From Eledone cirrhosa (lineage: Eukaryota): a DNA stretch of 64,000 nt. The notes below the pieces were generated by a model. It was not told where the DNA came from. It made no database searches and saw nothing but the letters and a program-made list of their open reading frames with translations. The position numbers were made by a program, and so were the translations under genes. Shown in pieces: positions 6,573-35,643 of the stretch; position 1 is the first letter of the stretch; each line of letters begins with the position of its first letter. Location: NCBI GenBank assembly GCA_964016885.1, contig OZ024748.1, forward strand, positions 41,664,001 through 41,728,000. Direction: 5' to 3'.

Positions 6573-6661
6573 TGTTCTTCAGTTTTAGCTGCACCAATTG
6601 CAGACTGGCAGTTGCATCTTCTACTGAGTTGTGACCATTGTCTCCAGTTTGGATCTGTTTA
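6573..6661 (-). CDS. REXO5: REXO5-like exon with ExoIII motif: KQIQTGDNGHNSVEDATASLQLVQLKLKN
   Basis: Acceptor tttctgttttatttcatag|T and donor ACA|gtaagt; 89 nt, phase 2 to 1; GHxSxED is the DEDDh ExoIII motif. Confidence 0.95.
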
Positions 6662-10300: not shown

Positions 10301-13300
10301 AGTGATGGTAGTGATGGTAGTGATGGCAGTGATGGTAGTGATGGCAGTGATGGTAGTGATGGTAGTGATGACAGTGATGACAGTGATGGTAGTGATGGCA
10401 GTGGTGACAGTGATGGTAGTGATGACAGTGATGGTAGTGATGGCAGTGATGGTAGTGATGACAGTGATGGTAGTGATGGTAGTGATGACAGTGATGGTAG
10501 TGATGGTAGTGATGACAGTGATGGTAGTGATGACAGTGATGGTAGTGATGACAGTGGTGACAGTGATGGTAGTGATGACAGTGATGACAGTGATGGCAGT
10601 GATGGTAGTGATGGTAGTGATGACAGTGATGGTAGTGATGGTAGTGATGGCAGTGATGGCAGTGATGGTAGTGATGGTAGTGATGGCAGTGATGGTAGTG
10701 ATGGCAGTGATGGTAGTGATGGCAGTGATGGCAGTGGTGACAGTGGTGACAGTGATGGTAGTGATGGTAGTGATGGTAGTGATGGTAGTGATGACAGTGA
10801 TGGTAGTGATGACAGTGATGGTAGTGATGGTAGTGATGACAGTGATGGTAGTGATGGTAGTGATGACAGTGATGGTAGTGATGACAGTGATGGCAGTGAT
10901 GGTAGTGATGGTAGTGATGGCAGTGATGGTAGTGATGGTAGTGATGGCAGTGATGGTAGTGATGACAGTGATGGTAGTGATGACAGTGATGGTAGTGATG
11001 GCAGTGATGGTAGTGATGGTAGTGATGACAGTGATGGTAGTGATGACAGTGATGGCAGTGATGGCAGTGATGGTAGTGATGGCAGTGATGGTAGTGATGG
11101 TAGTGATGAGTGATGGCAGTGATGGCAGTGATGGTAGTGATGGCAGTGATGGCAGTGATGGTAGTGATGACAGTGGTGACAGTGATGGTAGTGATGGCAG
11201 TGATGGTAGTGATGGCAGTGATGGCAGTGATGACAGTGATGACAGTGATGGTAGTGATGGTAGTGATGGCAGTGGTGACAGTGATGGTAGTGATGGCAGT
11301 GATGGTAGTGATGGCAGTGATGGTAGTGATGGTAGTGATGGCAGTGATGGTAGTGATGACAGTGGTGACAGTGATGGTAGTGATGGTAGTGATGGTAGTG
11401 ATGACAGTGATGGTAGTGATGACAGTGATGACAGTGATGGTAGTGATGGCAGTGATGGTAGTGATGACAGTGATGGCAGTGATGGTAGTGATGGTAGTGA
11501 TGACAGTGGTGACAGTGATGGTAGTGATGGTAGTGATGGCAGTGATGGTAGTGATGACAGTGGTGACAGTGATGGTAGTGATGGTAGTGATGGTAGTGAT
11601 GACAGTGATGGTAGTGATGACAGTGATGACAGTGATGGTAGTGATGGTAGTGATGGTAGTGATGGCAGTGATGGTAGTGATGACAGTGATGGTAGTGATG
11701 GTAGTGATGACAGTGATGGTAGTGATGGCAGTGATGGTAGTGATGGTAGTGATGACAGTGATGGTAGTGATGGTAGTGATGGTAGTGATGGCAGTGATGG
11801 TAGTGATGACAGTGATGGTAGTGATGACAGTGATGGTAGTGATGACAGTGATGACAGTGATGGCAGTGATGGTAGTGATGGCAGTGATGGCAGTGATGGT
11901 AGTGATGGTAGTTATGGTAGTGATGGCAGTGATGGTAGTGATGACAGTGATGGTAGTGATGGTAGTGATGACAGTGATGGCAGTGATGGTAGTGATGGTA
12001 GTGATGACAGTGATGGTAGTGATGGCAGTGATGGTAGTGATGGTAGTGATGACAGTGATGGTAGTGATGGCAGTGATGAGTGATGGTAGTGATGGCAGTG
12101 ATGGCAGTGATGACAGTGATGACAGTGATGGTAGTGATGGTAGTGATGACAGTGATGGCAGTGATGACAGTGATGGCAGTGATGGTAGTGATGGCAGTGA
12201 TGGTAGTGATGGTAGTGATGACAGTGATGACAGTGATGACAGTGATGGCAGTGATGGTAGTGATGGTAGTGATGGTAGTGATGGCAGTGATGGTAGTGAT
12301 GGTAGTGATGGTAGTGATGACAGTGATGGTAGTGATGACAGTGATGACAGTGATGGTAGTGATGGCAGTGATGGTAGTGATGGCAGTGATCGTAGTGATG
12401 GTAGTGATGGTAGTGATGACAGTGGTGACAGTGGTGACAGTGATGGTAGTGATGACAGTGATGGTAGTGATGACAGTGGTGACAGTGATGGTAGTGATGA
12501 CAGTGGTGACAGTGATGGCAGTGATGGTAGTGATGGTAGTGATGACAGTGATGGCAGTGATGACAGTGATGGTAGTGATGACAGTGGTGACAGTGATGGC
12601 AGTGATGGTAGTGATGGTAGTGATGACAGTGATGGCAGTGATGACAGTGGTGACAGTGATGGCAGTGATGGTAGTGATGGTAGTGATGACAGTGATGGCA
12701 GTGATGGTAGTGATGACAGTGATGGCAGTGATGGCAGTGATGGCAGTGATGACAGTGATGGCAGTGATGGCAGTGATGGCAGTGATGACAGTGATGGCAG
12801 TGATGACAGTGATGACAGTGATGGTAGTGATGACAGTGATGACAGTGATGACAGTGATGACAGTGATGACAGTGATGGCAGTGATGACAGTGATGGCAGT
12901 GATGGCAGTGATGACAGTGATGACAGTGATGGTAGTGATGACAGTGGTGAGTGATGGTAGTGATGACAGTGATGGCAGTGATGGTAGTGATGACAGTGAT
13001 GGCAGTGATGGTAGTGATGACAGTGATGGTAGTGATGGTAGTGATGGCAGTGATGGTAGTGATGGCAGTGATGGTAGTGATGACAGTGATGGTAGTGATG
13101 GCAGTGATGGTAGTGATGACAGTGATGGTAGTGATGACAGTGATGGTAGTGATGACAGTGATGGTAGTGATGACAGTGATGGTAGTGATGACAGTGATGG
13201 TAGTGATGACAGTGGTGACAGTGATGGTAGTGATGACAGTGATGGCAGTGATGGTAGTGATGACAGTGATGGCAGTGATGGTAGTGATGACAGTGATGGT

Positions 13301-16300
13301 AGTGATGGTAGTGATGGTAGTGATGGCAGTGATGGTAGTGATGGTAGTGATGGCAGTGATGGTAGTGATGGCAGTGATGGTAGTGATGGCAGTGATGGCA
13401 GTGGTGACAGTGGTGACAGTGATGGTAGTGATGGTAGTGATGGTAGTGATGGTAGTGATGACAGTGATGGTAGTGATGGTAGTGATGACAGTGATGGTAG
13501 TGATGGTAGTGATGACAGTGATGGTAGTGATGGTAGTGATGACAGTGATGGTAGTGATGACAGTGATGGCAGTGATGGTAGTGATGGTAGTGATGGCAGT
13601 GATGGTAGTGATGGTAGTGATGGCAGTGATGGTAGTGATGACAGTGATGGTAGTGATGACAGTGATGGTAGTGATGGCAGTGATGGTAGTGATGGTAGTG
13701 ATGACAGTGATGGTAGTGATGACAGTGATGGCAGTGATGGCAGTGATGGTAGTGATGGCAGTGATGGTAGTGATGGTAGTGATGAGTGATGGCAGTGATG
13801 GCAGTGATGGTAGTGATGGCAGTGATGGCAGTGATGGTAGTGATGACAGTGGTGACAGTGATGGTAGTGATGGCAGTGATGGTAGTGATGGCAGTGATGG
13901 TAGTGATGGCAGTGATGACAGTGATGACAGTGATGGTAGTGATGGTAGTGATGGCAGTGGTGACAGTGATGGTAGTGATGGCAGTGATGGTAGTGATGGC
14001 AGTGATGGTAGTGATGGTAGTGATGGCAGTGATGGTAGTGATGACAGTGGTGACAGTGATGGTAGTGATGGTAGTGATGGTAGTGATGACAGTGATGGTA
14101 GTGATGACAGTGATGACAGTGATGGTAGTGATGGCAGTGATGGTAGTGATGACAGTGATGGCAGTGATGGTAGTGATGGTAGTGATGACAGTGGTGACAG
14201 TGATGGTAGTGATGGTAGTGATGGCAGTGATGGTAGTGATGACAGTGGTGACAGTGATGGTAGTGATGGTAGTGATGGTAGTGATGACAGTGATGGTAGT
14301 GATGACAGTGATGACAGTGATGGTAGTGATGGTAGTGATGGTAGTGATGGCAGTGATGGTAGTGATGACAGTGATGGCAGTGATGGTAGTGATGGTAGTG
14401 ATGGTAGTGATGACAGTGGTGACAGTGATGGTAGTGATGGTAGTGATGGTAGTGATGGTAGTGATGGTAGTGATGGCAGTGATGGCAGTGGTGACAGTGA
14501 TGGTAGTGATGGTAGTGATGGTAGTGATGGCAGTGGTGACAGTGATGGTAGTGATGGTAGTGATGGTAGTGATGGCAGTGATGACAGTGATGGTAGTGAT
14601 GGCAGTGGTGACAGTGATGGTAGTGATGGCAGTGATGGTAGTGATGGCAGTGATGGTAGTGATGGCAGTGATGGTAGTGATGGTAGTGATGGCAGTGATG
14701 GTAGTGATGACAGTGATGGTAGTGATGACAGTGATGGCAGTGATGGCAGTGATGACAGTGATGGTAGTGAAGGCAGTGATGACAGTGATGGTAGTGATGG
14801 CAGTGGTGACAGTGATGGTAGTGATGGCAGTGATGGTAGTGATGGCAGTGATGGTAGTGATGGTAGTGATGGCAGTGATGGTAGTGATGGTAGTGATGGC
14901 AGTGATGGTAGTGATGGTAGTGATGGTAGTGATGACAGTGGTGACAGTGATGGCAGTGATGGCAGTGATGGCAGTGATGGCAGTGATGGTAGTGATGACA
15001 GTGATGGCAGTGATGGTAGTGATGGCAGTGATGGCAGTGATGGCAGTGATGGTAGTGATGACAGTGGTGACAGTGATGGCAGTGATGGCAGTGATGGTAG
15101 TGATGGCAGTGATGGTAGTGATGACAGTGATGGCAGTGATGGTAGTGATGGTAGTGATGGCAGTGATGGTAGTGATGGCAGTGATGGCAGTGATGGTAGT
15201 CATGGCAGTGATGGTAGTGATGGCAGTGATGGCAGTGATGGTAGTGATGGTAGTGATGACAGTGATGGCAGTGATGGTAGTGATGGTAGTGATGGCAGTG
15301 ATGGTAGTGATGGCAGTGATGACAGTGATGGTAGTGATGGCAGTGATGGTAGTGATGGCAGTGATGGTAGTGATGGTAGTGATGACAGTGATGGTAGTGA
15401 TGGCAGTGATGGTAGTGATGGCAGTGATGACAGTGATGGTAGTGATGGCAGTGATGGTAGTGATGACAGTGATGGTAGTGATGGCAGTGATGACAGTGAT
15501 GACAGTGATGGTAGTGATGACAGTGATGACAGTGATGACAGTGATGGTAGTGATGACAGTGATGGCAGTGATGACAGTGATGGTAGTGATGGTAGTGATG
15601 ACAGTGGTGACAGTGATGGTAGTGATGACAGTGATGGTAGTGATGGTAGTGATGACAGTGATGGTAGTGATGACAGTGATGGTAGTGATGACAGTGATGG
15701 TAGTGATGGTAGTGAAGACAGTGGTGACAGTGATGGTAGTGATGGCAGTGATGGTAGTGATGGTAGTGATGGCAGTGATGGTAGTGATGGCAGTGATGAC
15801 AGTGGTGACAGTGATGGTAGTGATGGCAGTGATGGTAGTGATGGCAGTGATGACAGTGGTGACAGTGATGGTAGTGATGGCAGTGATGGTAGTGATGGTA
15901 GTGATGGCAGTGATGGTAGTGATGACAGTGATGGTAGTGATGGCAGTGATGGTAGTGATGGCAGTGATGGCAGTGATGGTAGTGATGGTAGTGATGGTAG
16001 TGATGGTAGTGATGGCAGTGATGGCAGTGATGGTAGTGATGGCAGTGATGGTAGTGATGGTAGTGATGACAGTGATGGTAGTGATGGCAGTGATGGTAGT
16101 GATGGTAGTGATGACAGTGATGACAGTGATGGTAGTGATGGCAGTGATGGTAGTGATGGTAGTGATGACAGTGATGACAGTGATGGTAGTGATGGCAGTG
16201 ATGACAGTGGTGACAGTGATGGTAGTGATGGTAGTGATGGTAGTGATGGTAGTGATGGCAGTGATGACAGTGATGGTAGTGATGACAGTGATGGTAGTGA

Positions 16301-19300
16301 TGGCAGTGATGGTAGTGATGGTAGTGATGGCAGTGATGGTAGTGATGGTAGTGATGGTAGTGATGGTAGTGATGGCAGTGATGGTAGTGATGGCAGTGAT
16401 GGTAGTGATGGTAGTGATGGCAGTGATGGTAGTGATGACAGTGATGGTAGTGATGGCAGTGATGGTAGTGATGGCAGTGATGGTAGTGGTGGCAGTGATG
16501 GCAGTGATGGTAGTGATGGTAGTGATGGTAGTGATGGTAGTGATGGCAGTGGTGACAGTGATGGTAGTGATGGTAGTGATGGTAGTGATGGTAGTGATGG
16601 CAGTGATGGTAGTGATGGTAGTGATGGTAGTGATGGCAGTGATGGTAGTGATGACAGTGATGGCAGTGATGGTAGTGATGACAGTGATGGTAGTGATGGT
16701 AGTGATGACAGTGATGGCAGTGATGGTAGTGATGGCAGTGATGGTAGTGATGGTAGTGATGGTAGTGATGGCAGTGATGGTAGTGATGACAGTGATGGCA
16801 GTGATGGTAGTGATGACAGTGATGGTAGTGATGGTAGTGATGACAGTGATGGTAGTGATGACAGTGATGGTAGTGATGACAGTGATGGTAGTGATGGTAG
16901 TGATGACAGTGATGGTAGTGATGACAGTGATGGTAGTGATGGCAGTGATGGTAGTGATGACAGTGATGGCAGTGATGGCAGTGATGACAGTGATGGTAGT
17001 GATGACAGTGATGGTAGTGATGACAGTGATGGTAGTGATGACAGTGATGACAGTGATGGTAGTGATGGTAGTGATGACAGTGATGGTAGTGATGACAGTG
17101 ATGGTAGTGATGACAGTGATGGTAGTGATGGTAGTGATGACAGTGATGGTAGTGATGGCAGTGATGACAGTGATGGTAGTGATGGCAGTGATGGTAGTGA
17201 TGACAGTGATGGTAGTGATGGCAGTGATGACAGTGATGGTAGTGATGGCAGTGATGGTAGTGATGACAGTGATGGTAGTGATGACAGTGATGGTAGTGAT
17301 GGCAGTGATGACAGTGATGGTAGTGATGACAGTGATGGTAGTGATAAGAGTGATGGTAGTGATGAGAGTGATGGTAGTAATGGCAGTGATGGTAGGGATG
17401 GCAGTGATGGCAGTGATGGTAGTGATGACAGTGATGGTAGTGATGGCAGTGATGGTAGTGATGGTAGTGATGGTAGTGATGACAGTGATGGTAGTGATGG
17501 CAGTGATGGTAGTGATGGTAGTGATGACAGTGATGGTAGTGATGGTAGTGATGGTAGTGATGGCAGTGATGGTAGTGATGACAGTGATGGTAGTGATGAC
17601 AGTGATGGTAGTGATGGCAGTGATGGTAGTGATGGTAGTGATGGTAGTGATGGCAGTGATGGTAGAGATGACAGTGATGGTAGTGATGGCAGTGATGGTA
17701 GTGATGACAGTGATGGTAGTGATGGCAGTGATGGTAGTGATGGCAGTGATGGTAGTGATGACAGTGATGACAGTGATGGTAGTGATGACAGTGATGGTAG
17801 TGATGACAGTGATGGTAGTGATGGTAGTGATGGTAGTGATGGCAGTGATGGGAGTGATGACAGTGATGGCAGTGATGGTAGTGATGACAGTGATGGTAGT
17901 GATGGTAGTGATGGCAGTGATGGCAGTGATGGGAGTGATGACAGTGATGGCAGTGATGGTAGTGATGGTAGTGATGGTAGTGATGGCAGTGATGGTAGTG
18001 ATGGTAGTGATGGCAGTGATGGTAGTGATGGTAGTGATGGCAGTGATGGTAGTGATGGCAGTGGTGACAGTGATGGTAGTGATGACAGTGATGGGAGTGA
18101 TGACAGTGATGGTAGTGATGGTAGTGATGGGAGTGATGACAGTGATGGTAGTGATGGTAGTGATGGTAGTGGTGACAGTGATGGTAGTGATGGCAGTGAT
18201 GGGAGTGATGACAGTGATGGTAGTGATGGTAGTGATGGTAGTGGTGACAGTGATGGTAGTGATGGGAGTGATGAGTGATGGTAGTGATGGTAGTGATGGT
18301 AGTGATGACAGTGATGGTAGTGATGGTAGTGATGGCAGTGATGGTAGTGATGGCAGTGATGGTAGTGATGGTAGTGATGGTAGTGATGACAGTGATGACA
18401 GTGATGGTAGTGATGGCAGTGGTGACAGTGATGGTAGTGATGACAGTGATGGTAGTGATGGCAGTGATGGTAGTGATGACAGTGATGGTAGTGATGGTAG
18501 TGATGACAGTGATGGTAGTGATGGTAGTGATGACAGTGATGGTAGTGATGACAGTGATGGTAGTGATGACAGTGGTGACAGTGATGGTAGTGATGACAGT
18601 GATGACAGTGATGGCAGTGATGGTAGTGATGGTAGTGATGACAGTGATGGTAGTGATGGTAGTGATGGCAGTGGTGACAGTGATGGCAGTGATGGGAGTG
18701 ATGGTAGTGATGGTAGTGATGGCAGCGATGGCAGTGATGACAGTGATGACAGTGATGGTAGTGATGACAGTGATGGTAGTGATGACAGTGATGACAGTGA
18801 TGGTAGTGATGGCAGTGATGGTAGTGATGGTAGTGATGACAGTGGTGACAGTGATGGTAGTGATGACAGTGGTGGTAGTGATGGTAGTGATGACAGTGAT
18901 GGTAGTGATGGTAGTGATGGCAGTGATGGTAGTGATGACAGTGATGACAGTGATGGTAGTGATGACAGTGATGACAGTGATGACAGTGATGGTAGTGATG
19001 GTAGTGATGACAGTGATGACAGTGATGACAGTGATGGTAGTGATGGCAGTGATGGTAGTGATGACAGTGATGGTAGTGATGGTAGTGATGGTAGTGATGG
19101 CAGTGATGGTAGTGATGGCAGTGATGGTAGTGATGACAGTGATGGTAGTGATGACAGTGATGGTAGTGATGGTAGTGATGACAGTGATGGTAGTGATGAC
19201 AGTGATGGTAGTGATGACAGTGATGGTAGTGATGACAGTGATGGTAGTGGTGGGAGTGATGACAGTGATGGTAGTGCTGACGGTGATGGTAGTGATGGCA

Positions 19301-21368
19301 GTGATGGTAGTGATGGCAGTGATGGTAGTGATGGCAGTGATGGTCGTGATGGTAGTGATGACAGTGATGGTAGTGATGACAGTGATGGTAGTGATGACAG
19401 TGATGGTAGTGATGGTAGTGATGACAGTGATGGTAGTGATGACAGTGATGGTAGTGATGGCAGTGATGGTAGTGATGACAGTGATGGTAGTGATGGTAGT
19501 GATGACAGTGATGGTAGTGATGACAGTGATGGTAGTGATGGCAGTGATGGTAGTGATGACAGTGATGGTAGTGATGACAGTGATGGTAGTGATGGTAGTG
19601 ATGAGTGATGACAGTGATGGCAGTGATGGTAGTGATGACAGTGATGGTAGTGATGACAGTGATGGTAGTGATGACAGTGATGGTAGTGATGACAGTGATG
19701 GAAGTGGTGGGAATGATGACAGTGATGGTAGTGCTGACGGTGATGGTAGTGATGGCAGTGATGGTAGTGATGACAGTGATGGTAGTGATGGTAGTGATGG
19801 TAGTGATGACAGTGATGGTAGTGATGACAGTGATGGTAGTGATGACAGTGATGGTAGTGATGACAGTGATGGTAGTGATGGTAGTGATGACAGTGATGAC
19901 AGTGATGGTAGTGATGACAGTGATGACAGTGATGGTAGTGATGGTAGTGATGGTAGTGATGACAGTGATGACAGTGATGACAGTGATGACAGTGATGGTA
20001 GTGATGGTAGTGATGGCAGTGATGGTAGTGATGACAGTGATGGTAGTGATGGTAGTGATGGCAGTGATGGTAGTGATGACAGTGATGACAGTGATGACAG
20101 TGATGGTAGTGATGACAGTGATGGCAGTGATGGTAGTGATGACAGTGATGGTAGTGATGACAGTGATGGTAGTGATGGTAGTGATGGTAGTGATGGCAGT
20201 GATGGTAGTGATGGCAGTGATGGTAGTGATGACAGTGATGGTAGTGGTGGGAGTGATGACAGTGATGGTAGTGATGACAGTGAGGGTAGTGGTGGGAGTG
20301 ATGACAGTGATGGTAGTGATGACAGTGATGGTAGTGGTGGGAGTGATGACAGTGATGGTAGTGATGGCAGTGATGGTAGTGATGACAGTGATGACAGTGA
20401 TGGTAGTGATGGCAGTGATGGTAGTGATGACAGTGATGGTAGTGGTGGGCGTGATGACAGTGATGGTAGTGATGACAGTGAGGGTAGTGGTGGTGGTGAT
20501 GACAGTGATGGTAGTGATGACAGTGATGGTAGTGGTGGTAGTGATGGCAGTGATGGTAGTGGTGGTAGTGATGACAGTGATGGTAGTGATGACAGTGATG
20601 GTAGTGATGGTAGTGGTGGGAGTGATGACAGTGATGGTAGTGATGACAGTGATGGTAGTGGTGGTAGTGATGACAGTGATGGTAGTGATGACAGTGATGG
20701 TAGTGATGACAGTGATGGTAGTGATGGTAGTGATGGTAGTGGTGGGAGTGATGACAGTGATGGTAGTGATGACAGTGATGGTAGTGATGGTAGTGGTGGG
20801 AGTGATGACAGTGATGGTAGTGATGACAGTGATGGTAGTGGTGGTAGTGATGACAGTGATGGTAGTGGTGGTAGTGATGACAGTGATGGTAGTGATGGTA
20901 GTGATGGTAGTGGTGGGAGTGATGACAGTGATGGTAGTGATGACAGTGATGACAGTGAGGGTAGTGGTGGTAGTGATGACAGTGATGGTAGTGATGACAG
21001 TGATGGCAGTGATGGTAGTGATGAGTGATGGCAGTGATGACAGTGATGGTAGTGATGACAGTGGTGGTAGTGATGACAGTGAGGGTAGTGGTGGTAGTGA
21101 TGACAGTGATGGTAGTGATGGTAGTGATGACAGTGATGAGTGATGGCAGTGATGACAGTGATGGTAGTGATGACAGTGGTGGTAGTGATGACAGTGAGGG
21201 TAGTGGTGGTAGTGATGACAGTGATGGTAGTGATGACAGTGATGGTAGTGGTGGTAGTGATTGTAGTGGTGGTAGTGATGGTAGTGATGGTAGTGATGAC
21301 AGTGATGGTAGTGATGACAGTGAGGGTAGTGGTGGTAGTGAGGGTAGTGGTGGTAGTGGTGGTAGTGA
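7365..21368. repeat. ~14 kb 9-bp satellite AGTGAT(GGT/GGC/GAC); grades into (GGT/GAT)n at the left end and AGTGGTGGT units at the right end
   Basis: About 1500 visible units in three main variants; sporadic 7-bp units shift the frame. Confidence 0.98.
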
Positions 21369-21416
21369 TTATGATGAATATAATTGCAACCGTTGAAGTG
21401 GTGAGGTGGAACTTAC

Positions 21417-21517
21417 CCAAGGAAATATTCAGTCAATTTCTTCAGTTTACTCTTTTGATATTTGAATCCAGAAAGGTTGTAAATGGTACTGGTGTCGATA
21501 ACATAGGGGTGGAACAT
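21417..21517 (-). CDS. REXO5: REXO5-like exon: MFHPYVIDTSTIYNLSGFKYQKSKLKKLTEYFLG
   Basis: Acceptor gtcttctacctgtag|ATG and donor TGG|gtaagt; 101 nt, phase 0 to 2; HPYVIDTS and xLKxL...LG are conserved in REXO1/REXO5 exonuclease domains. Confidence 0.95.
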
Positions 21518-23600
21518 CTACAGGTAGAAGACAGGTAATAACATAGGGGTGGAACATCTACAGGTAGAAGACAGGTAATAACATAGGGGTGGGACATCTA
21601 CAGGTAGAAGACAGGTAATAACATAGGGGTGGGACATCTACAGGTAGAAGACAGGTAATAACATAGGAGTGGAACATCTACAGGTAGAAGACAGCTAATA
21701 ACATAGGGGTGTGACATCTCCAGGTAGAAGACAGGTAATAACAAACATGTAGGACATCTACAGGTAGAAGACAGGTAATAACATAGGAGTGGGACATCTA
21801 CAGGTAGAAGACGGGTAATAACATAGGGGTGTGACATCTATAGGTAGAAGACAGGTAATAACATAGGGGTGGGACATCTACAGGTAGTAACATAGGGGTG
21901 GAACATCTACAGGTAAAAGACAGGTAATAACATAGGGGTGGAACATCTACAGGTAGAAGACAGGTAGTAACATAGGGGTGGAACATCTACAGGTAAAACA
22001 CAAGTAATAACATAGGGGTGGAACATCTACAGGTAGAAGACAGGTAATGACATAGGAGTGGGACATCTACAGGTAGAAGACAGGTAATGACATAGGAGTG
22101 GGACATCTACAGGTAGAAGACGGGTATTAACATAGGAGTGGGACATCTACAGGTAGAAGACGGGTATTAACATAGGAGTGGGACATCTACAGGTAGAAGA
22201 CGGGTATTAACATAGGAGTGGGACATCTACAGGTAGAAGACAGGTAATAACATAGGAGTGTGACATCTATAGGGAGAAGACAGGTAATAATATAGGAGTG
22301 GGACATCTACAGGTAGAAGACAGGTAATAACATAGGAGTGTGACATCTATAGGGAGAAGACAGCTAATAACATAGGAGTGGGACATCTACAGGTAGAAGA
22401 CAGGTAATAACATAGGAGTGTGACATCTATAGGGAGAAGACAGGTAATAACATAGGGGTGGGACATCTACAGGTAGAAGACAGGTAATAACATAGGGGTG
22501 GAACATCTACAGGTAGAAGACAGGTAATAACATAGGAGTGGGACATATATAGGGAGAAGACAGGTAATAACATAGGAGTGGGACATCTACAGGTAGAAGA
22601 CAGGTAATAACATAGGAGTGTGACATCTATAGGGAGAAGACAGGTAATAACATAGGGGTGGGACATCTACAGGTAGAAGACAGGTAATAACATAGGGGTG
22701 GAACATCTACAGGTAGAAGACAGGTAATAACATAGGAGTGGGACATCTACAGGTAGAAGACAGGTAATAACATAGGAGTGGGACATCTACAGGTAGAAGA
22801 CAGGTAATAACATAGGGGTGGGACATCTACAGGTAGAAGACAGGTAATAACATAGGGGTGGGACATCTACAGGTAGAAGACAGCTAATAACATAGGGGTG
22901 GGACATCTACAGGTAGAAGACAGGTAATAACAACAGGTAGGACATTGACAGGTAGAAGACAGGTAATAACATAGGAGTGGGACATCTACAGGTAGAAGAC
23001 AGGTAATAACATAGGGGTGGAACATCTACAGGTAGAAGACAGGTAATAACATAGGGGTGGAACATCTACAGGTAGAAGACAGGTAATAACAAACATGTAG
23101 GACATCTACAGGTAGAAGATACGTAATAACATAGGAGTGGGACATCTACAGGTAGAAGACGGGTATTAACATAGGGGTGGGGCATCCACAGGTAGAAGAC
23201 AGGTAATAACATAGGGGTGGGACATCTACAGGTAGAAGACAGCTAATAACATAGGGGTGGGGCATCCACAGGTAGAAGACAGGTAATAACATAGGGCTGG
23301 GGCATCCACAGGTAGAAGACAGGTAATAACATAGGGGTGGGACATCTACAGGTAGAAGACCGGTAATAACAAACATGTAGGACATCTACAGGTAGAAGAT
23401 ACGTAATAACATAGGAGTGGGACATCTACAGGTAGAAGACAGGTAATAACATAGGGGTGGGACATCTACAGGTAGAAGACAGGTAATAACATAGGGGTGG
23501 GACATCTACAGGTAGAAGACAGCTAATAATATAGGGGTGGGGCATCCACAGGTAGAAGACAGGTAATAACAAACATGTAGGACATCTAAAGGTAGAAGAC
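21498..23600 (-). repeat. 40-bp minisatellite made of the REXO5 3' splice site plus exon start (minus: ATGTTCCACCCCTATGTTATTACCTGTCTTCTACCTGTAG), ~52 copies
   Basis: The first 20 nt of the unit equal the first 20 nt of the exon (21517-21498) and the unit ends in the acceptor TAG. Confidence 0.96.
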
Positions 23601-23826
23601 TTAGACAGACAATTTTTCATATTAAATTGCTCAGGTAACTTTTAGTCTTTCATTTTCCTTCTCCCACCTTTGTTTCTACCTCAAATATCTCAAAATTTCT
23701 TTCTGACTTGTTACCTTGGTAATCTAACCCCCCTGGATTGTACGGCTCTCTAAACACACGTACCCACTTTTCAGTTTCATCTCCCACATTGCTTCAAGCA
23801 AACTATCACACCTTATTATATATATA

Positions 23827-24608: not shown

Positions 24609-25602
24609 GATATTATGTGAGATAAAGCCTTTACCATGAAAATACAATAGTATATATAGAGTAATGTAAATGTTATGTGAAATATTATGTGAGGTAAAGC
24701 CTTTACTGTGAAAATATAATAGTATATATAGAGTAATGTAAATGTTATGTGAGATATTATGTGAGGTAAATCCTTTACTGTGAAAATACAATAGTATATA
24801 TAGAGTAATGTAAATGTTATGTGAGATATTATGTGAGATAAAGCCTTTACTGTGAAAATACAATAGTATATATAGAGAGTAATGTAAATGTTATGTGAGA
24901 TATTATGTGAGGTAAAGCCTTTACTGTGAAAATACAATAGTATATATAGAGAGTAATGTAAATGTTATGTGAGATATTATGTGAGGTAAAGCCTTTACTG
25001 TGAAAAAATAATAGTATATATAGAGTAATGTAAATGTTATGTGAGATATTATGTGAGGTAAAGCCTTTACTGTGAAAATACAATAGTATATATAGAGTAA
25101 TGTAAATGTTATGTGAGATATTACGTGAGATAAAGCCTTTACTGTGAAAATACAATAGTATATATAGAGAGTAATGTAAATGTTATGTGAGATATTATGT
25201 GAGGTAAAGCCTTTACTGTGAAAATACAATAGTATATATAGAGAGTAATGTAAATGTTATGTGAGATATTATGTGAGGTAAAGCTTTTACTGTGAAAATA
25301 TAATAGTATATATAGAGTAATGTAAATGTTATGTGAGATATTATGTGAGGTAAAGCCTTTACTGTGAAAATACAATAGTATATATAGAGTAATGTAAATG
25401 TTATGTGAGATATTATGTGAGGTAAAGCCTTTACTGTGAAAATACAATAGTATATATATAGAGTAATGTAAATGTTATGTGAGATATTATGTGAGATAAA
25501 GCCTTTACTGTGAAAATACAACAGTATATATAGAGAGTAATGTAAATGTTATGTGAGATATTATGTGAGGTAAAGCCTTTACTGTGAAAATACAATAGTA
25601 TA
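24609..25602. repeat. 72/74-bp satellite (TTTACTGTGAAAATACAATAGTATATATAGAGTAATGTAAATGTTATGTGAGATATTATGTGAGGTAAAGCC), left part
   Basis: Visible tandem copies. Confidence 0.96.
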
Positions 25603-27247
25603 TCATCATCACCGTTTTACGTCCGTTCTTCCACACTAGCATGGGTTAGACGGGTTGTCCTGTTGTGGGCAGTGTCTGGTCGGCTGACCATGCCTTGCTC
25701 ATACAGGAACTGATTTGGCTTGATTTCTACAGCTGGATGCCCTTCCTAACACCAACCTCATTTACAGTGAGTGCTGGGTGCTTTTTCGTGGCGCCTACAC
25801 GTCCACTTTACAGTGTGGGCTGGGTGCTTTTTTGCCGTGGCACCTCCACGGCCACCTTGCGGTGGGGGGTGTGGGGGCATATTGTCTATATCCTTCAGCT
25901 TGTACCCATGGGAGGTCGGGTACTTTGTATTACTGCGTGACGCCAGAAGTCACGGTCGTGTGTCATTGTCTTTGAGAGGTGTAATTGGGTAAGGTCGGCT
26001 TTTATCACCTCATCCCAGGTCATCTTGGGTCTCCCCACTCCGCGGTTTCCATCAACTTCTAGTGCTCTGCACCTTTTTATGCAGCTGTCATCCTTCATAC
26101 GCATCACATGTCCATACCAGCGCAACCGCCTCTCCTGCACACAGCATTTGATTCCTCTTATGCTCAGTCTCTCTCTCAATTCATTTATGCTTTGTCATTC
26201 ACGTATATTATTGTTACACATCCATCGGAGCATGCAGGCTTCGTTTCTCTCTAATCTACGTAAGTCTTCCACCTTCAGCGCCCAGGTCTCACTACCATGC
26301 AACATCGCTGTTCGGATACACGCATCATACAGTCTGCCTTTCATTCTGAGGGAGAAGCCTTTTGCAGCTAGCAGTGGTAGTAGTTCCCTAAACTTCTTCC
26401 ATCCCGTTCTTACCCTAGTTATTGCACTTTCTGAACACCCACCTCCGTTGCTAATTCGGTCACCTAGGTAGCAGAAGCTGTCTACTGTTTCTACAGGGCC
26501 CTCCCAGAGATTGGTGGTACTTGTTTCCTGTGGCTGTTTGCTGTCTCAGCACAGCTGCTGCATGTGAATCCTACATTCTTAATTAAGCTTCCTGAGATCC
26601 CGCTACATCTCTTGTGTACCCATTGTTTGCATTTGGGGCAGAGAATGGAGTTCCTACCTACACCTTTCCTACATACTGAGCAAGGCCATTTCCCTGAGGG
26701 GATCTGGGTTCTGTTTTCTCGTCTACTTACAAGGACCTTAGTCTTTGTCATGTTGACTTTGAGACCCTTTCTTTCTAGTCCCTGCTTCCAGGTTTGGAAT
26801 TTATTCTCTAGTTCTACCATAGATTCAGCTATGAGTGCGAGGTCATCAGCATACAGGAGTTCCCATGGGCATCCGGTCTTAAACTCCTCCGTTATTGCCT
26901 GCAGAACTATGATGAACAGGAGAGGGCTAAGAACAGAGCCCTGGTGGACCCCAACCTGTACGCTAAATTCCTCGCTATACTCATTGCTAATCCTAACTTT
27001 GCTGACTGCTCCCCTATACATGGCTTGTACCGCTTTCACAAGCCATTCATCTATTCCTAGTTTTCTAAGAGCCCACCAGATTACAGCACGTGGAACTCTG
27101 TCAAAGGCTTTCTCAAGGTCGACAAATGCCAAGTAGAGTGGCTTACTTTTAGCTAGGTACTTTTCCTGTAATTGCCTCACAAGGAAGAGGGCATCAGTGG
27201 TGCCTCTTCCTGGTACAAACCCAAATTGCATCTCGTCTATTTTCATA
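25603..27247 (-). mobile_element. RTE-clade LINE, 5'-truncated, inserted into the 72-bp satellite
   Basis: RT motifs (QFGFVPGRGTTDA, AFVDLEKAFD, GVHQGSVLSP, LLYADD), Cys-rich WPCSVC...WVHKRC, RRLRWYGHV, a 3' UTR and a (GAT)n tail. Confidence 0.95.
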
Positions 27248-27275
27248 AAATGTAAATTTTGAGAAAATGTAAATA

Positions 27276-28010
27276 TTATATATAGAGAGTAATGTAAATG
27301 TTATGTGAGATATTATGTGAGGTAAAGCCTTTACTGTGAAAATATAATAGTATATATAGAGTAATGTAAATGTTATGTGAGATATTATGTGAGGTAAAGC
27401 CCTTACTGTGAAAATACAATAGTGTATATAGAGTAATATAAATGTTATGTGAGATATTATGTGAGGTAAAGCCTTTACTGTGAAAATATAATAGTATATA
27501 TAGAGTAATGTAAATGTTATGTGAGATATTATGTGAGGTACTGTGAAAATACAATAGTATATATAGAGTAATGTAAATGTTATGTGAGATATTATGTGAG
27601 GTAAAGCCCTTACTGTGAAAATACAATAGTATATATAGAGTAATGTAAATGTTATGTGAGATATTATGTGAGGTATAGCCTTTACTGTGAAAATATAATA
27701 GTATATATAGAGTAATGTAAATGTTATGCGAGATATTATGTGAGGTAAAGCCTTTACTGTGAAAATACAATAGTATATATAGAGTAATGTAAATGTTATG
27801 TGAGATATTATGTGAGGTAAAGCCTTTACTGTGAAAATACAATAGTATATATAAAGTAATGTAAATGTTATGTGAGATATTATGTGAGGTAAAGCCTTTA
27901 CTGTGAAAATACAATAGTATATATAGAGTAATATAAATGTTATATAAGATATTATGTGAGGTAAAGCCTTTACTGTGAAAATATAATAGTATATATAGAG
28001 TAATGTAAAT
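27276..28010. repeat. 72-bp satellite, right part
   Basis: Same unit; ends ~36 nt from the donor at 28046. Confidence 0.96.
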
Positions 28011-28046
28011 GCTAAAGGGTTAAAGAATATGTAGAAGAAGACTGAC

Positions 28047-28185
28047 CTTTAAGCTGTCTAAGTCGAAGTTTAGAGAGTGACCACATAGGATAGCATCTTT
28101 AGGAAGGAGAGTCCGGAACTTGTTCTGAACATCTTTCAATGTAGTACACACCGGCCTCATCATCTCTTCATTGATACCACTGTAT
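28047..28185 (-). CDS. REXO5: REXO5-like exon with ExoII motif: YSGINEEMMRPVCTTLKDVQNKFRTLLPKDAILCGHSLNFDLDSLK
   Basis: Acceptor gctatatttctag|A and donor AAG|gtcagt; 139 nt, phase 2 to 0; GHSLxxDL motif. Confidence 0.96.
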
Positions 28186-28270
28186 CTAGAAATATAGCAA
28201 AAAATAAACAGATATTAATGTGTCTGTGTGTAGATATGTAGGGGTGTATATATATATATCAATGCCTAAG

Positions 28271-31200
28271 TTATCATCATCGTTTAACGTCCATATTCCA
28301 CGCTTGCATGGGTTTGAACGGGAGTTTTCCCACTTGAGGCAAGATTGGTCGTCTCGCTCTCATAGGACTGTCTGGCGGGTTTTCTACAGCTGGATGCCCT
28401 TCCTAACACCAACCACATTTACAGTGTGGAACTGGGAGGTTTTTACCGTGTTACCTACACGGCCACATTACAGCGTGGACTGTGTGTTTTTTTGTCGTGA
28501 CACCTACACGACCTCATTTGTTTCGGGATGGATGTTGTGGTACCAACATAACTTTACATTGAAAGGGGTGGTGTGGATGGGGTGGGAGTAGTGGGACGGG
28601 GGTGTATTTTGTTAGAGGTGCCTACTGACTGTAGTAGGTTTCACTTTGTACTTAGGTAAGGCGGGTCTTCTCTATTACTGTGTAGCGCCAAAGATCTCGG
28701 TCCAGTGACATTGTCTTGGAGAGGTGTAAGTGTGTGAGGTCGGAATTTATCAAGTCGTCCCAGGTTTTTCTGGGTCTGCCTACTCCGTGGCTACCGTCTA
28801 TTTTTATTGCCCTGCACTTTTTTATACAGCTGTCGTCTTTCATGCGCATCACGTGACCATACCAACGTAGTCTTCTCTCGAGTAAACAGCATCTGATCCC
28901 TCTTATTTCTAATTTTTCCCTTAGTTCGTTTATGCTTTGCCGTTCACGTATATTACTATTACACATCCAGCGGAGCATGCAAGCTTCGTTCCTCTCCAGT
29001 CTGCATATATCCTCTGCACACAATGCCCAGGTCTCACTGCCATGCAACATTGCTGTTTGTATGCAGGCATCATACAGCCTGCCTTTCATTTTTAGGGAGA
29101 ACCCTTTAGCAGCTAATATTGGTATAAGCTCTCTGAACTTTTTCCATCCAGTTCTGACTCTAGCTACTGTACTTTCAGAGCACCCTCCCCCACTGCTGAT
29201 TTTGTCACCCAGGAACGGAAGCTGTCCACTATTTCTATAGAACCATCTGTGCAATGGAATGAGCTAGTATTCTGTGGGCACTTGCTGCTACTTATTGCAC
29301 CCGAGCACCGGCCACATATAAAATCTATGTTCTTAGTTAGCTTACCTGTGATCCCACTACATCTTTTATGCACCCATACTTTGCATTTGGGACATAAAAT
29401 GGAGTTTCTACCTACTCCGTTCCTACACACTGAGCATGGCCATTTCCCGGATGGGACCGGCGCCCTATTTTCCTTCCTACAAACTAGAACTTTAGTCTTA
29501 GACAGGTTAATTTTAAGGCCTTTTGCTTCTAGGCCATGCTTCCATGTTTGGAATTTCTTCTCTAGTTCGGCCATTGATTCAGCTATGAGCGTTAGATCAT
29601 CTGTGTATAGGAGTTCCCATGGGCAGCCGGTCTTGAACTCCACTGTTATAGCCTGAAGGGCAATAATAAATAGTAGGGGGCTAAGAACGGAGCCCTGATG
29701 AACAACTTTTACGCTAAACTCTTCATTATATTCGTTGTTAATTCTAACCTTGCTGACTGTTTCTTTATACATGGCTTGTACAGCTCTCACAAGCCATTCA
29801 TCAACACCTAGTTTTCTAAGAGCCCACCAGATAATGGAACGGGGGACTCTGTCGAAGGCTTTCTCCAAGTCGACAAAAGCTAAGTATAGGGGTTTACTTT
29901 TAGCTAGGTACTTCTCCTGTAGTTGTCGTACAATGAAAAGAGCGTCTGTGGTACTTTTACCTGACACAGACCCGAACTGCATTTCATCTAGATCAATTCT
30001 CTCTCTGATTAGTTGTGCTATTACTTTTTCTGTGACCTTCATGACCTTGTAGCAGTTAATGATGATGTTGCTACGCCAGTCCTTCGGAACAACCCCATTC
30101 TGTATGACTTGGTTTACTATCCGGGAGACCATGGTGTGTCCCACCTTTCCAGAAGCTTTCAGCATTTCAGCAACTATTTCCGAAGGCCCAGCCGCCATAC
30201 CCGTCTTCATATCTTTGATTGCCTTACTTATTATACTACCTTCGACTAATACTGCTGGTCCCTCTATTGGGTCGATGTGGGGGAGACTGTCTTTCTCCCA
30301 TTTATTCTCCTCATTTAGTAGCCTTTCGTAGTGACACTTCCAAGCTACCTTCTTATCAGCGTCAGTGATGGCAAGTACACCATCATCATTAAGGACACAC
30401 TTCTCCCCGACAATATCACGGTTTTCCTTGCCACATTGCCTAGCAATCCTGAACACCTCACGTTTTGGGTCCTCGCGTTGTAGAACATGCTTGAACTTTC
30501 TTTCCTCTGCTTCCCTTCTTGCGAAGTACACTTGTCTCCTAGCTTCCCTCCTGGCCACTTGATAGTCTTCTCTACTTCCCCCATCCCGCCATACTTTCCA
30601 AGCCTGCTTTTTGGCCTTAATTGACTCCTCCACCTTACTGTTCCACTACCATGTTACTCTCCTCCTGCCTATAGGCCTGCTCCAGCCACAGACTTCGTCT
30701 GCCGCCATCAGCAGGTTTGCTTTCAGGAATTCCCACTGTTCCTTTATATTGTACGACTCTAAATGCTCTTCCTTACTGTCGAAAGCCTCAAGTAATATGC
30801 TTTTAAATTTATTTCTGGCTGTGGGGTCCTTTAGCTTCCATATTTTCTTCGTGAGGATAGTCCTCTTCTGCTGTCGAGTACGTCTCGTCCTGACTATGAG
30901 GTCACTAATTATCAGTCTATGTTGGGAGGTGCATTCTTCATGGGGGAGGGATTTAGTGTTTACAACAGACACTCTGTCACGTCTTCTGGTAAGGATATAA
31001 TCTACCTGGCTGGTATGTTCTCCTGATCTGTAGGTGATCAAGTGATTGTCTCGTTTTTTGAAGTTAGTGTTACAGATAGTTAGGTTATTTGCGTCACAGA
31101 ATTCCAGGATTCTGGAGCCTTCCTCATTTCTAGTACCAAACCCATAGCCTCCATGGATTCCGTCATAACCGTCACAATGTTGTCAACGTGACCATTTAGG

Positions 31201-31740
31201 TCGCCAGCAATAATTATATAGTCACTGTCGGTTATTTGGGAGGTAGTGAGCATCAGTGTCTCATAGAATCTGTCTTTTATAGTGCCGGGCAGTCCGGATT
31301 GGGGCACGTACGCAGATATTACTGTCACAGTAGTTCTATTTAGAACAAGTCTTATTTTAATTATTCTGTCATTCACTCTATTTACGTCTATTATCTTATC
31401 CACCCATTTTTCTGCTAACATGATTCCTACCCCGCCCAGCCCATTGTCATTTCCCACCCAGAAAAGCTTATAGCATCGTTTTTTACCCACAATGAATCTA
31501 GCAGACCCGCCCCTCCACCTGGTCTCTTGGATACAGCAAACATCAACCTCCTTACGTTCAAGCATTTCTACAACCTCGTTAGAGCAGCCTTTTAAGGTGC
31601 CTACATTCATAGTACCAACTGTGAAGTTTTGGATTGCGTTTGGTGGGTGGGGCGCAGGGAGGGGTGAGGGGGATAGGGTTGGGGTTATGTTGGCCATCCG
31701 CGGCCGCAACAAAGAGGAGGGGGCCTTGCCCTTTCAAGTA
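28271..31740 (-). mobile_element. Near full-length decayed RTE LINE (APE endonuclease + RT)
   Basis: GTMNVGTL, CCIQETRW, AGDLNGHV, SQVDYIL and SQHRL motifs; RT with YTDD in place of YADD; frameshifts and a deletion at NCYK|VMKV; (GAT)n tail at 28271-28281. Confidence 0.95.
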
Positions 31741-32119: not shown

Positions 32120-35100
32120 TTATCGAGCAGACAAGGGGTGGACAGAGGCTCCGTAAGCCGTAATGTAGGCAACCCATCTAGGAGAGCTACCACTCCGAAT
32201 AAATTGGTACGGGGTAGAGAAATCCTCTAAGTCCAATAAGACAACTTCCCTAGTGCTGGTGGCACAAATAAAAGCACCCAGTCCATGCTGTAAAGTGGTG
32301 CTGGTGTTAGGAAGGGCATCCAACCAGTATATATACTAGTGCCAAACACAATGAACACAACGAATTAAATTTGCAACAACTGTGTAAACAGCAATAACAC
32401 TAACCCTGTTAGGGCTGCGTGTGGTAGTGGGGTGGCTGGTGCGGCCATGTGCGAGAATCTCCCGACCGTCATCAAGCAATCGCACAAAAACAACTGCGTA
32501 AACAGCAATAACACTAACCATGTTAGGGCTGCGCAAGGTAGTGGGGTGGCCAGTGAGGCCATGTGTGAGAACTCCACGACCGTCATCAAGCAATCGCACA
32601 ACAGGAAAAAGAACAAGACGTCGCATCTCAGAGTTTCCACACTTAATGTTGGCACTCTAACAGGTAGTTCTGGTGAGATAGCAGAGATGCTGGAGAGACG
32701 GTATGTGGATGTGTGCTGTGTGCAATAAGTGAGATGGAGAGGTGCCTCTGTGAGACTAATCGCAGGCAAACATTGTAGTTATCAGCTTTTCTGGGTGGGT
32801 AATGATGATGGGTTAGGTGGGGGTGAGCATATTACTGGCTGAGAGATGGATCAATAAGACAATAGAGGTAGTTAGAGTCAGTGATAGAATAATTAAACTT
32901 AGATTAGTTGTAGGCAAGAGACTACTGACAATCATCTCTGCCTATGTTCCCCAGGCAGGCCTAGGTAAAGAAGAGAAAGACTGCTTTTATGAGCAACTTT
33001 TACAAATAGCCTCAATGACAGAGACATCGTTATGCTAGCAAGGGACTTCAATCGTCATGTTGGACAGCTCCAGGATGGTTACACTGGGGTACATGGTGGG
33101 CACGGTTACGGCTCAAGAAATGAAGGAGTGAGGCTTCATGAATTTTGTGATGCAAATGTACTAACCATTTGCAACACTAACTTCCAGAAGCCTACCAACC
33201 ACCTAATAACCTACAAATCAGGCTAGCACATAAGCCAGATTGACTTCCTGCTAGTTAGACAGCGAGACAGACAGATGGTGTCAAATACTAAGGCATACTC
33301 TGGGAAAAAATGTACCTCACAGCATAGGTTAGTCATTAGTGATATCTCAGTAAGCAAGAGATGGAATGAGACATACAGGAAGGTGTGGAAAAGAAAGGTC
33401 TGGAAGCTAAAAGACCTTTCATTAAAATATAAATTTAGCAAAGCCCTTCAAGACGTGTATGACGAAAAAGAAGACGATTTAGAGTTGTATGACATAGATG
33501 ATAACTGGAATATCTTACGTGACAACTTACTGCAGGCTACTGAAGAAACTTGTGGTTGGGGCAGAGCTTCAACCAGACAGAGAGTGACCTGGTGGTGGAA
33601 CAGCACAGTAGATAGGGCCATTAGAGACAAAAGACTGGCATGGAAGGCTTGGAAAAATGGTGGGAGTAGGGAAGGATACACAGCCACTAAGAGAGAAGCT
33701 AGACGTCAGTTGTACTTAGCACGCAGGGAGGCTGAGAGTAGGAGATTTGCCAATGTTCTGCAACGGGAAGATCAGAGACGTGCGGTGTTCCACATTGCAA
33801 GGCAGTGTGTCAGTGCAAATCAGGATGTTGTTTGAGATAAGTGTGTCCGAAATAATGCTGGTGTACTTAGTGTCCCGAATGATCAAAAAAAGAAGACCTG
33901 GAAATGTCACTATGAGAGACCCTTGAATGTAGAGAATGAATGGGACAGAGAGGAATTACCCCCAGTAGACCCAACAGAGGGACCAGCTATTGAATTTGAT
34001 GAATATAGGGTACAAGAGGCAATTAAAGAAATGAAGAATGGTAAGGCTGCTGGACCGTCGGCGATAGTTGCTGAGATGCTGAAGGCATCAGGTGAAGTAA
34101 GCATTAAACTGGTTGCACGCATCATCTATCAGGCTTTATATGGCGGTGTCATACCCAAAGACTGGTGCAGCAGTATTCTCATAAATTGTTACAAAGGTAA
34201 AAGGGATGCTCTAGAGAGGAGCAATTATAGGGGCATAAAGCTGATGGATCAGGTTATAAAAGTGGCAGAGAGAATATTAGCGCAACTGATTAGAGAAAGG
34301 GTCAAATTAGATGAGATGCAGTTTGGTTTTGTGCCTGGGAAAAGTACAACAGATGCCCTCTTCATAGTGAGGCAACTACAAGAGAGGTTCTTAGAGAAGA
34401 ATAAGCCACTATACTTAGCTTTTGTTGACCTAGAGAAGGCCTTTGATATGGTACCCCAATCTGGAAACTAGGTGTAGAGGAATGGCTTGTGAGGACAGTG
34501 CAAGCTATGTACAGAGGTGCTGTCAGTAAAGTGAGAGTAGGTATGGAGTTTAGTGAGGAATTCCAGATACAAGTAGGAGTACACCAGGGTTCGATCCTCA
34601 GCCCGCTCTTGTTCATTATCGTCCTCCAAGCCATAACAGAGGAGTTTAAGACTGGCTGTCCATGGGAACTTCTCTATGCTGACGATCTGGTTCTTATAGC
34701 AGAATCAGTAGAGGAGCTGGAGAATAAATTCTGGCTATGGAAACAGCAGTTGGAATCAAGAGGACTGAGAGTGAACATAAGTAAGACAAAAGTGTTGATA
34801 AGTAGAAGATAATACTCCGATTCCATCAGGGAAATGGCCATGTTCAATATGTAAGAAAGGAACTGGCATAAATTCCATAAAATGTACGCAATGCAGATAT
34901 TGGGTACACAAGAGATGTAGTGGGATAGCAGGCAAACTAACAGGTAGGGAAAACTACGTATGCAGTAGATGTACAAGGAAAGTTGGCAGTAGTAATCACA
35001 GTGATAGACACATTTTTCCAATGCAGGTGGGTTCTATAGAAGTGGTTGATAGCTTCCGGTACCTAGGTGATCAAATTAGCATGGGAGGGGGGTGTTCCGA

Positions 35101-35643
35101 GGCCATAGTATCTAGAATAAGGACGGGTTGGAAGAAGTTTAGGGAGCTGCTTCCTTTGTTGACAAAGAAGGGTTTCTCCCTGCGTACGAAATGACAGTTA
35201 TATGATGCTTGTGTGAGATACATGATGCTGCATGGTAGTGAGACATGGGCAGCAACTGCAGAGGATATGCGACGGCTGGAGAGAAATGAAGCAAGTATGC
35301 TCCGTTGAATGTGCAATGTCAATGTGTGTGAACAACCAAGCATAGACGAGTTGAGAAAGAAACTGGGTATAAGAGGGATAAGTTGTGGTGTGCAAGAGAG
35401 AAGGCTGAGATGGTATGGACATGTGATGTGCATGGAAGATGACCGCTGGGTGAAGTGGAGGGAAGACGCAGTAGAGGTAGACCACGTAAAACATGGGCGG
35501 AGGTGGTGAGAGCAGACCTCAGATCGCTGAAACTCACCGCGGAGATGACGAAGGACCGTGACAAGTGGAGAGATGCTGTGCTGAATAGAACCCGTCCCAC
35601 CCTTGCAAGCAGGGAAAAGCAGAGATAAAATGATGATGATGAT
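32120..35643 (+). mobile_element. Near full-length decayed RTE LINE of a second subfamily
   Basis: STLNVGTL, DVCCVQ, DFNRHVG, SQHRL, QFGFVPGKSTTDA, LLYADD and RRLRWYGHV motifs; several stops and frameshifts; (GAT)n tail at ~35631-35643; 5' boundary approximate. Confidence 0.93.

Follow-up and report, generated by a model that had tools for sequence, protein, structure and literature searches.

The window, a 64,000-nt stretch of the Eledone cirrhosa genome, carries part of the gene for RNA exonuclease 5 (REXO5) on its minus strand. When the RNA exonuclease 5 of Octopus vulgaris was used in a tblastn search, ten exon matches were obtained, in order, over the window and the neighbouring stretch, with identities ranging from 56% (a match padded with intron) to 100%. 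The exon that precedes the repeat array described below is 100% identical to its O. vulgaris counterpart. The gene product belongs to the DEDDh exonucleases: PF00929 covers 262-408 of P0001, and the string GHNSVEDA, which we take to be the His/Asp motif of the ExoIII domain, is found at 395. Single exons of the gene fall below Pfam significance when tested alone. The coordinates of the exons and repeats are listed in Table 1.

Table 1. Features of the REXO5 locus (window positions) and junction-spanning repeats at control loci (L numbers).
Feature	Position	Strand	Remarks
REXO5 exon, 101 nt, MFHPYVIDTSTIYNLSGFKYQKSKLKKLTEYFLG	21417..21517	-	strong donor GTAAGT at 21416, score 10.2
Upstream REXO5 exon, 139 nt	28047..28185	-	ends in phase 0; HSLNFD inside; donor GT at 28046
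Next REXO5 exon	6573..6661	-	GHNSVEDA inside
40-bp minisatellite	21498..23600	-	TRF: period 40, 52.9 copies, 90% matches
Most upstream unit of the array	23566..23608	-	intronic half unlike last unit at 5/20 positions; adjoins unique intron
Productive acceptor (intronic half of last unit)	21518..21537	-	matrix score 6.9, ~5th percentile of called acceptors
72-bp intronic array, first block	24609..25603	-	acceptor-like TTTTCACAG
72-bp intronic array, second block	27279..28011	-	the two blocks flank a LINE-like fragment
Acceptor-spanning array, L074	5356-5657 (G000:C15:13221855-13222150)	-	7 upstream copies before kinase exon
Donor-spanning repeat, L186	5014	-	the four donor-spanning repeats: 2-4 extra copies, WD40/kinase genes
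Donor-spanning repeat, L132	4231	-
Donor-spanning repeat, L203	5011	-
Donor-spanning repeat, L118	3085	+

The locus is rich in tandem repeats. Minisatellites cover 72% of the window, compared with about 10% of the sampled control loci, and most introns of the REXO5 gene carry arrays. One of these, which has 67-71-bp units and exceeds 112 kb, lies in a REXO5 intron and extends from window positions 41245-64000 to at least G000:C8 41818000. A 14-kb low-complexity array of GTGATG type (7376-21369) starts 47 nt past the donor of the 101-nt exon, and this exon, with the 40-bp array upstream of it, is therefore hemmed by arrays on both sides. The two blocks of the 72-bp array contain 23 acceptor-like motifs of the TTTTCACAG type, the best of which scores 6.8. 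A LINE-like fragment (about 25600-27240) splits this array (24609-28011) and was therefore likely inserted after the array had arisen; more copies resembling LINEs are present at about 28250-31700 and 33000-35600. In addition, a stretch of 11 nt immediately upstream of the first 40-bp unit (23598-23608) is exactly complementary to the upstream exon at its 3′ end (28054-28064). The duplex would have about -18 kcal/mol, and chance alone would yield about 0.05 matches of this kind across the intron; as a signal, this complementarity is weak.

Structure and origin of the 40-bp array

The array is composed of 53 head-to-tail minisatellite units, one productive and 52 upstream, and lies in a REXO5 intron of 6.5 kb. 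It runs across the authentic intron-exon boundary and has the true exon at its edge. Each unit comprises the last 20 nt of the intron and the first 20 nt of the exon, and the intronic half contains a branch-like TNAY at -19/-22, a pyrimidine tract, and TAG. The 53 acceptor positions run from 23585 to 21517 on the minus strand with a spacing of 40 throughout, except for one 39-nt and one 29-nt unit. The AG is kept in 47 of the 53 units (46 upstream units and the productive one), and the six units without it start at 23545, 23305, 23265, 23185, 22945, and 22546. Only the last unit runs on as exon (MFHPYVIDTS..., 21517-21417). An earlier note on this DNA had described about 52 copies of a 40-bp unit, a handful of AG-less copies, and exon continuation from the most downstream copy alone; the array, with 52.9 copies by TRF and 53 acceptor positions, agrees with this description, and the six AG-less units are the very ones that had been named.

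There are 28 distinct variants of the 40-nt unit. Seven of the 52 upstream units, the neighbour at 21557 among them, match the last unit at each of the 40 nt, so the exon-side end unit is the same as seven others, and few units diverge more than the one at the intron-side end. This intron-side unit likely represents the original intron end. Neighbouring units are closer to each other than in shuffled arrays (adjacent distance 3.15 vs 3.55, p 0.015), as expected from local (concerted) turnover of units, and divergence shows no gradient from one end to the other (Spearman -0.07, p 0.6).

The gene gave rise to the array and not vice versa. The protein junction encoded at the boundary (...LDSLK/MFHPYVIDTS...) is unchanged in all of the 13 proteins aligned (Octopus, Argonauta, and cuttlefish-type sequences), so the exon head is ancestral. 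A 26-nt core pattern is matched exactly at 34 places in the 3.0-Gb assembly, every one of them inside the array, and the reversed 26-nt control at none. Because the head of the unit is conserved protein sequence and the unit is unique to the locus, the array came from the gene; a dispersed-satellite origin is ruled out by the conserved exon head together with the confinement of all core matches to the locus.

Choice of the acceptor and fate of the upstream copies

A contig of run X4 (2267 nt, depth 13.1) lies on 21417-21519 without mismatches, as judged over the stretch 21370-21580. The loose ends each have a unique mapping, to 28049-28078 and 6632-6661, from which it follows that the contig joins 28047 to 21517 and 21417 to 6661; the two extra bases are the AG common to the acceptor and the upstream exon end. 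X4 is one of four runs from a single study that cover the 3′ end of the gene, none of which is recorded as RNA, and its kind is unrecorded; it was taken as transcript-derived only because the contig is spliced across two introns. A spliced molecule uses the last copy, and the productive junction from 28047 to 21517, which had been claimed earlier, exists, on the evidence of this one contig. Contigs report presence only and rare isoforms drop out of them, so a single X4 contig cannot gauge minor isoforms. Likewise, the lack of an X4 contig over 21522-21580, where only the last two acceptor units lie, is a gap that proves nothing.

To score splice sites, matrices were derived from splice sites called in the same genome (267 acceptors and 315 donors), whose selection by seed score makes the percentiles lean high. 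By this measure, the score of the productive acceptor (6.9) is equalled or exceeded by 31 of the array's 54 AGs (the productive one counted) and by none of the 274 AGs elsewhere in the intron. Predicted RNA folding is alike in the last nine units, in each of which the AG is paired (unpaired 0.02-0.09). Since so many AGs score as well and the folding is alike, neither sequence nor predicted RNA fold sets the true site apart from its neighbours, and the weakness of the productive acceptor among so many equals makes real competition plausible. What is peculiar to the last copy is its context, namely the remaining 81 bases of the exon and the donor (10.2) located 101 nt away. The last copy would win by position, through the rest of the exon and this strong donor. 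Exon definition is likely the mechanism that picks it, as the earlier note had guessed, and the use of 21517 in the spliced contig agrees with this.

The consequences of using any other copy are uniform. The donor at 28046 is in phase 0, and with each of the 46 upstream AGs, 13 of them in frame and 33 shifted, translation would meet a stop within the extended exon and ahead of the ExoIII His/Asp motif, which confirms an earlier claim that every upstream acceptor would shift the frame or meet a stop before these residues. Further junctions lie downstream of the stops, and the products would therefore be substrates for NMD; a premature stop before later junctions in the alternative form, one requirement of AS-NMD, is present in 46 of 46 cases. 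Extended exons of at most 341 nt arise only from the six nearest AG copies. The rule that only the last copy makes protein is generic to such arrays, as the seven upstream copies of a second acceptor-spanning array (L074, below) all lead to stops too.

Junction-spanning repeats elsewhere in the genome

A control sample of 309 loci (1.76 Mb) was taken around kinase, WD40, Ras, RRM, and mitochondrial-carrier exons. In this sample, 328 acceptors and 330 donors were called automatically with our own HMMs, some of them wrongly (L113, L145, L199), and each junction was tested for two or more copies of itself in the adjacent intron. At least two copies were found at one of 328 acceptors (L074) and four of 330 donors (L118, L132, L186, and L203), compared with 0/978 and 0/989, respectively, in a shuffled null. 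A fifth donor match, at L199, was dropped on inspection as a low-complexity miscall. The combined rate in these five protein families is 5/658 called boundaries (0.76%, 95% interval 0.25-1.8%), which would correspond to roughly a thousand or more junction-spanning repeats genome-wide if the number of boundaries is assumed to be about 10^5. Single-copy matches, which are outside the array count, were found at two acceptors and six donors (null 6/978 and 4/989). TRF alone flagged 1/328 acceptors and 2/330 donors in the final control set, and a first pass by TRF proximity over 128 kinase matches gave no spanning array; the cases emerged only with our own HMMs and the junction-copy test.

The upstream copies at L074 consist of acceptor plus exon head at a spacing of 37-38 nt. 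With regard to the scan for acceptor-spanning repeats that had been suggested earlier, the sample shows that such repeats recur, at the one acceptor in 328; none is near 53 copies, the control arrays having about 3-8.

Some other repeats were encountered in the course of this survey. One near-perfect copy of exon end plus donor was observed 299 nt on from the junction at L205 (-,4950), and a degenerate copy of exon end plus donor at L321 (-,7400). A purely intronic 22-27-bp array at L120:2375-2863 (+) contains 18 sites with a pyrimidine tract plus AG and ends about 40 nt before a kinase acceptor; its sites score at most 8.4 vs 14.2 for the true site. In addition, a 35-bp array of about 378 copies (L011:2838-10000 and L139:1-6027; G000:C1:291.31-291.33 Mb) is the sole outside match to the REXO5 unit, to which it is 73-74% alike. 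No exon is evident at either end of this array, and its likeness to the REXO5 unit may reflect chance or distant derivation.

Interpretation and comparison with known systems

The array is, with considerable confidence, best read as a tolerated minisatellite of the "mirage" type across the 3′ splice site of REXO5, in which the last acceptor is dominant. It would have been born by local duplication across the junction, and the duplicated unit would then have expanded like the other intronic repeats of the gene. The spliced message seen takes the last copy, the 52 upstream copies are likely silent decoys that are removed with the intron, and whatever splicing reached the nearest copies would amount to minor noise, its products being cleared by NMD.

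Selection on the copies bears on the alternatives. Mismatches in the AG columns number 4 and 1 vs a mean of 2.6 per column, so these columns vary as the rest do. All six AG-less units lie at least 1029 nt from the exon, and the 25 exon-nearest units all keep the AG; this distal placing has a p of 0.015 when counted as six events and of 0.13 when counted as three alleles. There is no sign of a purging of competitors near the exon, as AG-less units do not adjoin the exon where they would be expected. The absence of purging fits harmless decoys or a young array, and there is no firm sign that the upstream AGs are actively kept.

It is improbable that the array is a harmful by-product, with splicing going astray to proximal copies, or the exon being skipped, in a sizeable share of transcripts, without regulation and under weak selection. 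The weak acceptor and its many equal competitors would favour such leakage, as would the human CBS and IFI6 genes, in which leakage to the two nearest pseudo-sites is described in the relevant part of PMC1557585. However, a full-length-sized, correctly spliced contig assembles, and AG loss near the exon is not seen.

A copy-number rheostat is unlikely and has no positive evidence. Here, proximal decoys would take a regulated or allele-dependent share of splicing into NMD, and the number of copies would tune REXO5 output. The premature stops ahead of later junctions from all 46 upstream AGs, the intact AGs of the 25 exon-nearest units, and a productive acceptor that is weak and the same as its neighbour are compatible with it, and tandem repeat length in humans can shift splicing, according to the portion of PMC10078293 consulted. 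On the other hand, stops are automatic for such units, as at L074; the distal placing of AG-less units loses its force when they are counted as three alleles; like structures occur in unrelated kinase and WD40 genes; and exon definition would limit competition to the nearest copies, so that added copies should saturate. A wider form of the idea appears just as doubtful, namely that the nearest decoys take a real share of splicing into NMD, that the minisatellite, being unstable, sets REXO5 dosage in a heritable and possibly somatically variable manner, and that junction-spanning repeats in octopods are an unrecognised layer of expression tuning.

An assembly artefact or an inflated copy number is very unlikely. 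Tandem arrays are hard to assemble and the count of 53 comes from one assembly, but the 28 distinct unit variants are locally clustered, and short contigs of runs X1-X3 (depth 12-110) contain the unit, though possibly from the assembly's own sample. Recursive splicing, for which the earlier note had considered the copies as landing sites, is scarcely credible and is not supported: recursive splice sites need AG/GT, and beyond the presence of many acceptors nothing favours it, as ATG follows the acceptor position in 53/53 units so that splicing there would not recreate a donor, GTs inside the array reach 2.5 at best vs 4.8 for the 5th percentile of called donors, and the intron is merely 6.5 kb. 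Micro-exons inside the array were also ruled out, there being no usable donor (best GT 2.5).

As a tolerated mirage repeat, the REXO5 array is well suited as a natural test of acceptor choice, with one site to be selected among 47 that are nearly identical, and junction-spanning repeats in general matter for gene annotation, splice-site choice, and studies of intron gain. The REXO5 array would matter more only if its copy number alters expression.

The closest known systems are the "mirage" minisatellites of amphioxus, which were reported in Adh3, the globins BflGb6 and BflGb9, troponin C, and PGBD5, the last two having been added in the second report (PMC3087553 and PMC3902484, as far as the parts consulted go). 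The mirage of BflGb6 is acceptor-side, with an intron 3′ end plus exon start in 6 and 3 units (from the part of PMC3087553 on this gene). The earlier statement that no acceptor-side precedent was known is thus wrong in kind. According to the same part of that source, many but not all mirage units keep AG/GT, regular splicing is undisturbed, and length is unstable. The REXO5 array resembles the mirages, as described there, in its tandem units across an intron-exon boundary, most with a splice signal, and in its normal mRNA; concerted evolution in amphioxus has its counterpart in the local turnover of REXO5 units, and the 40-bp unit is inside the 10-72 bp quoted for Adh3. It differs from them in its cephalopod host and in its 53 units vs the 3-6 quoted for BflGb6 and 2-7 for PGBD5. 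No cephalopod mirage or larger acceptor array was found in the literature searched, which does not prove absence from print.

In humans, donor-side VNTRs are described in the part of PMC1557585 consulted for F7 IVS7 (37 bp, 5-9 copies), CBS intron 13 (15-20 units), LMNB2, PDGF, and IFI6/6-16 (25 pseudo-sites). It was reported there that the authentic site alone is used in F7, LMNB2, and PDGF, and that two pseudo-sites are used besides the authentic one in CBS and IFI6. In these cases, as at REXO5, an authentic splice site is reiterated into the intron, and the exon-proximal site dominates in the human examples described; unlike them, the REXO5 array is acceptor-side and has about twice the largest human count quoted. 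Boundary internal tandem repeats in human paralogues were also proposed as a route of intron gain (the Rogers model, in the part of PMC2812944 consulted). The REXO5 array is similar to this model, as set out there, in that duplication over a splice signal produces redundant copies, which splicing removes, but it differs in that no new intron or exon arises, its units having no usable donor and the protein junction matching that of cuttlefish. The REXO5 array is a mirage-class repeat, of a kind already known and unusual in size, which extends mirages to cephalopods with the largest count among the systems compared.
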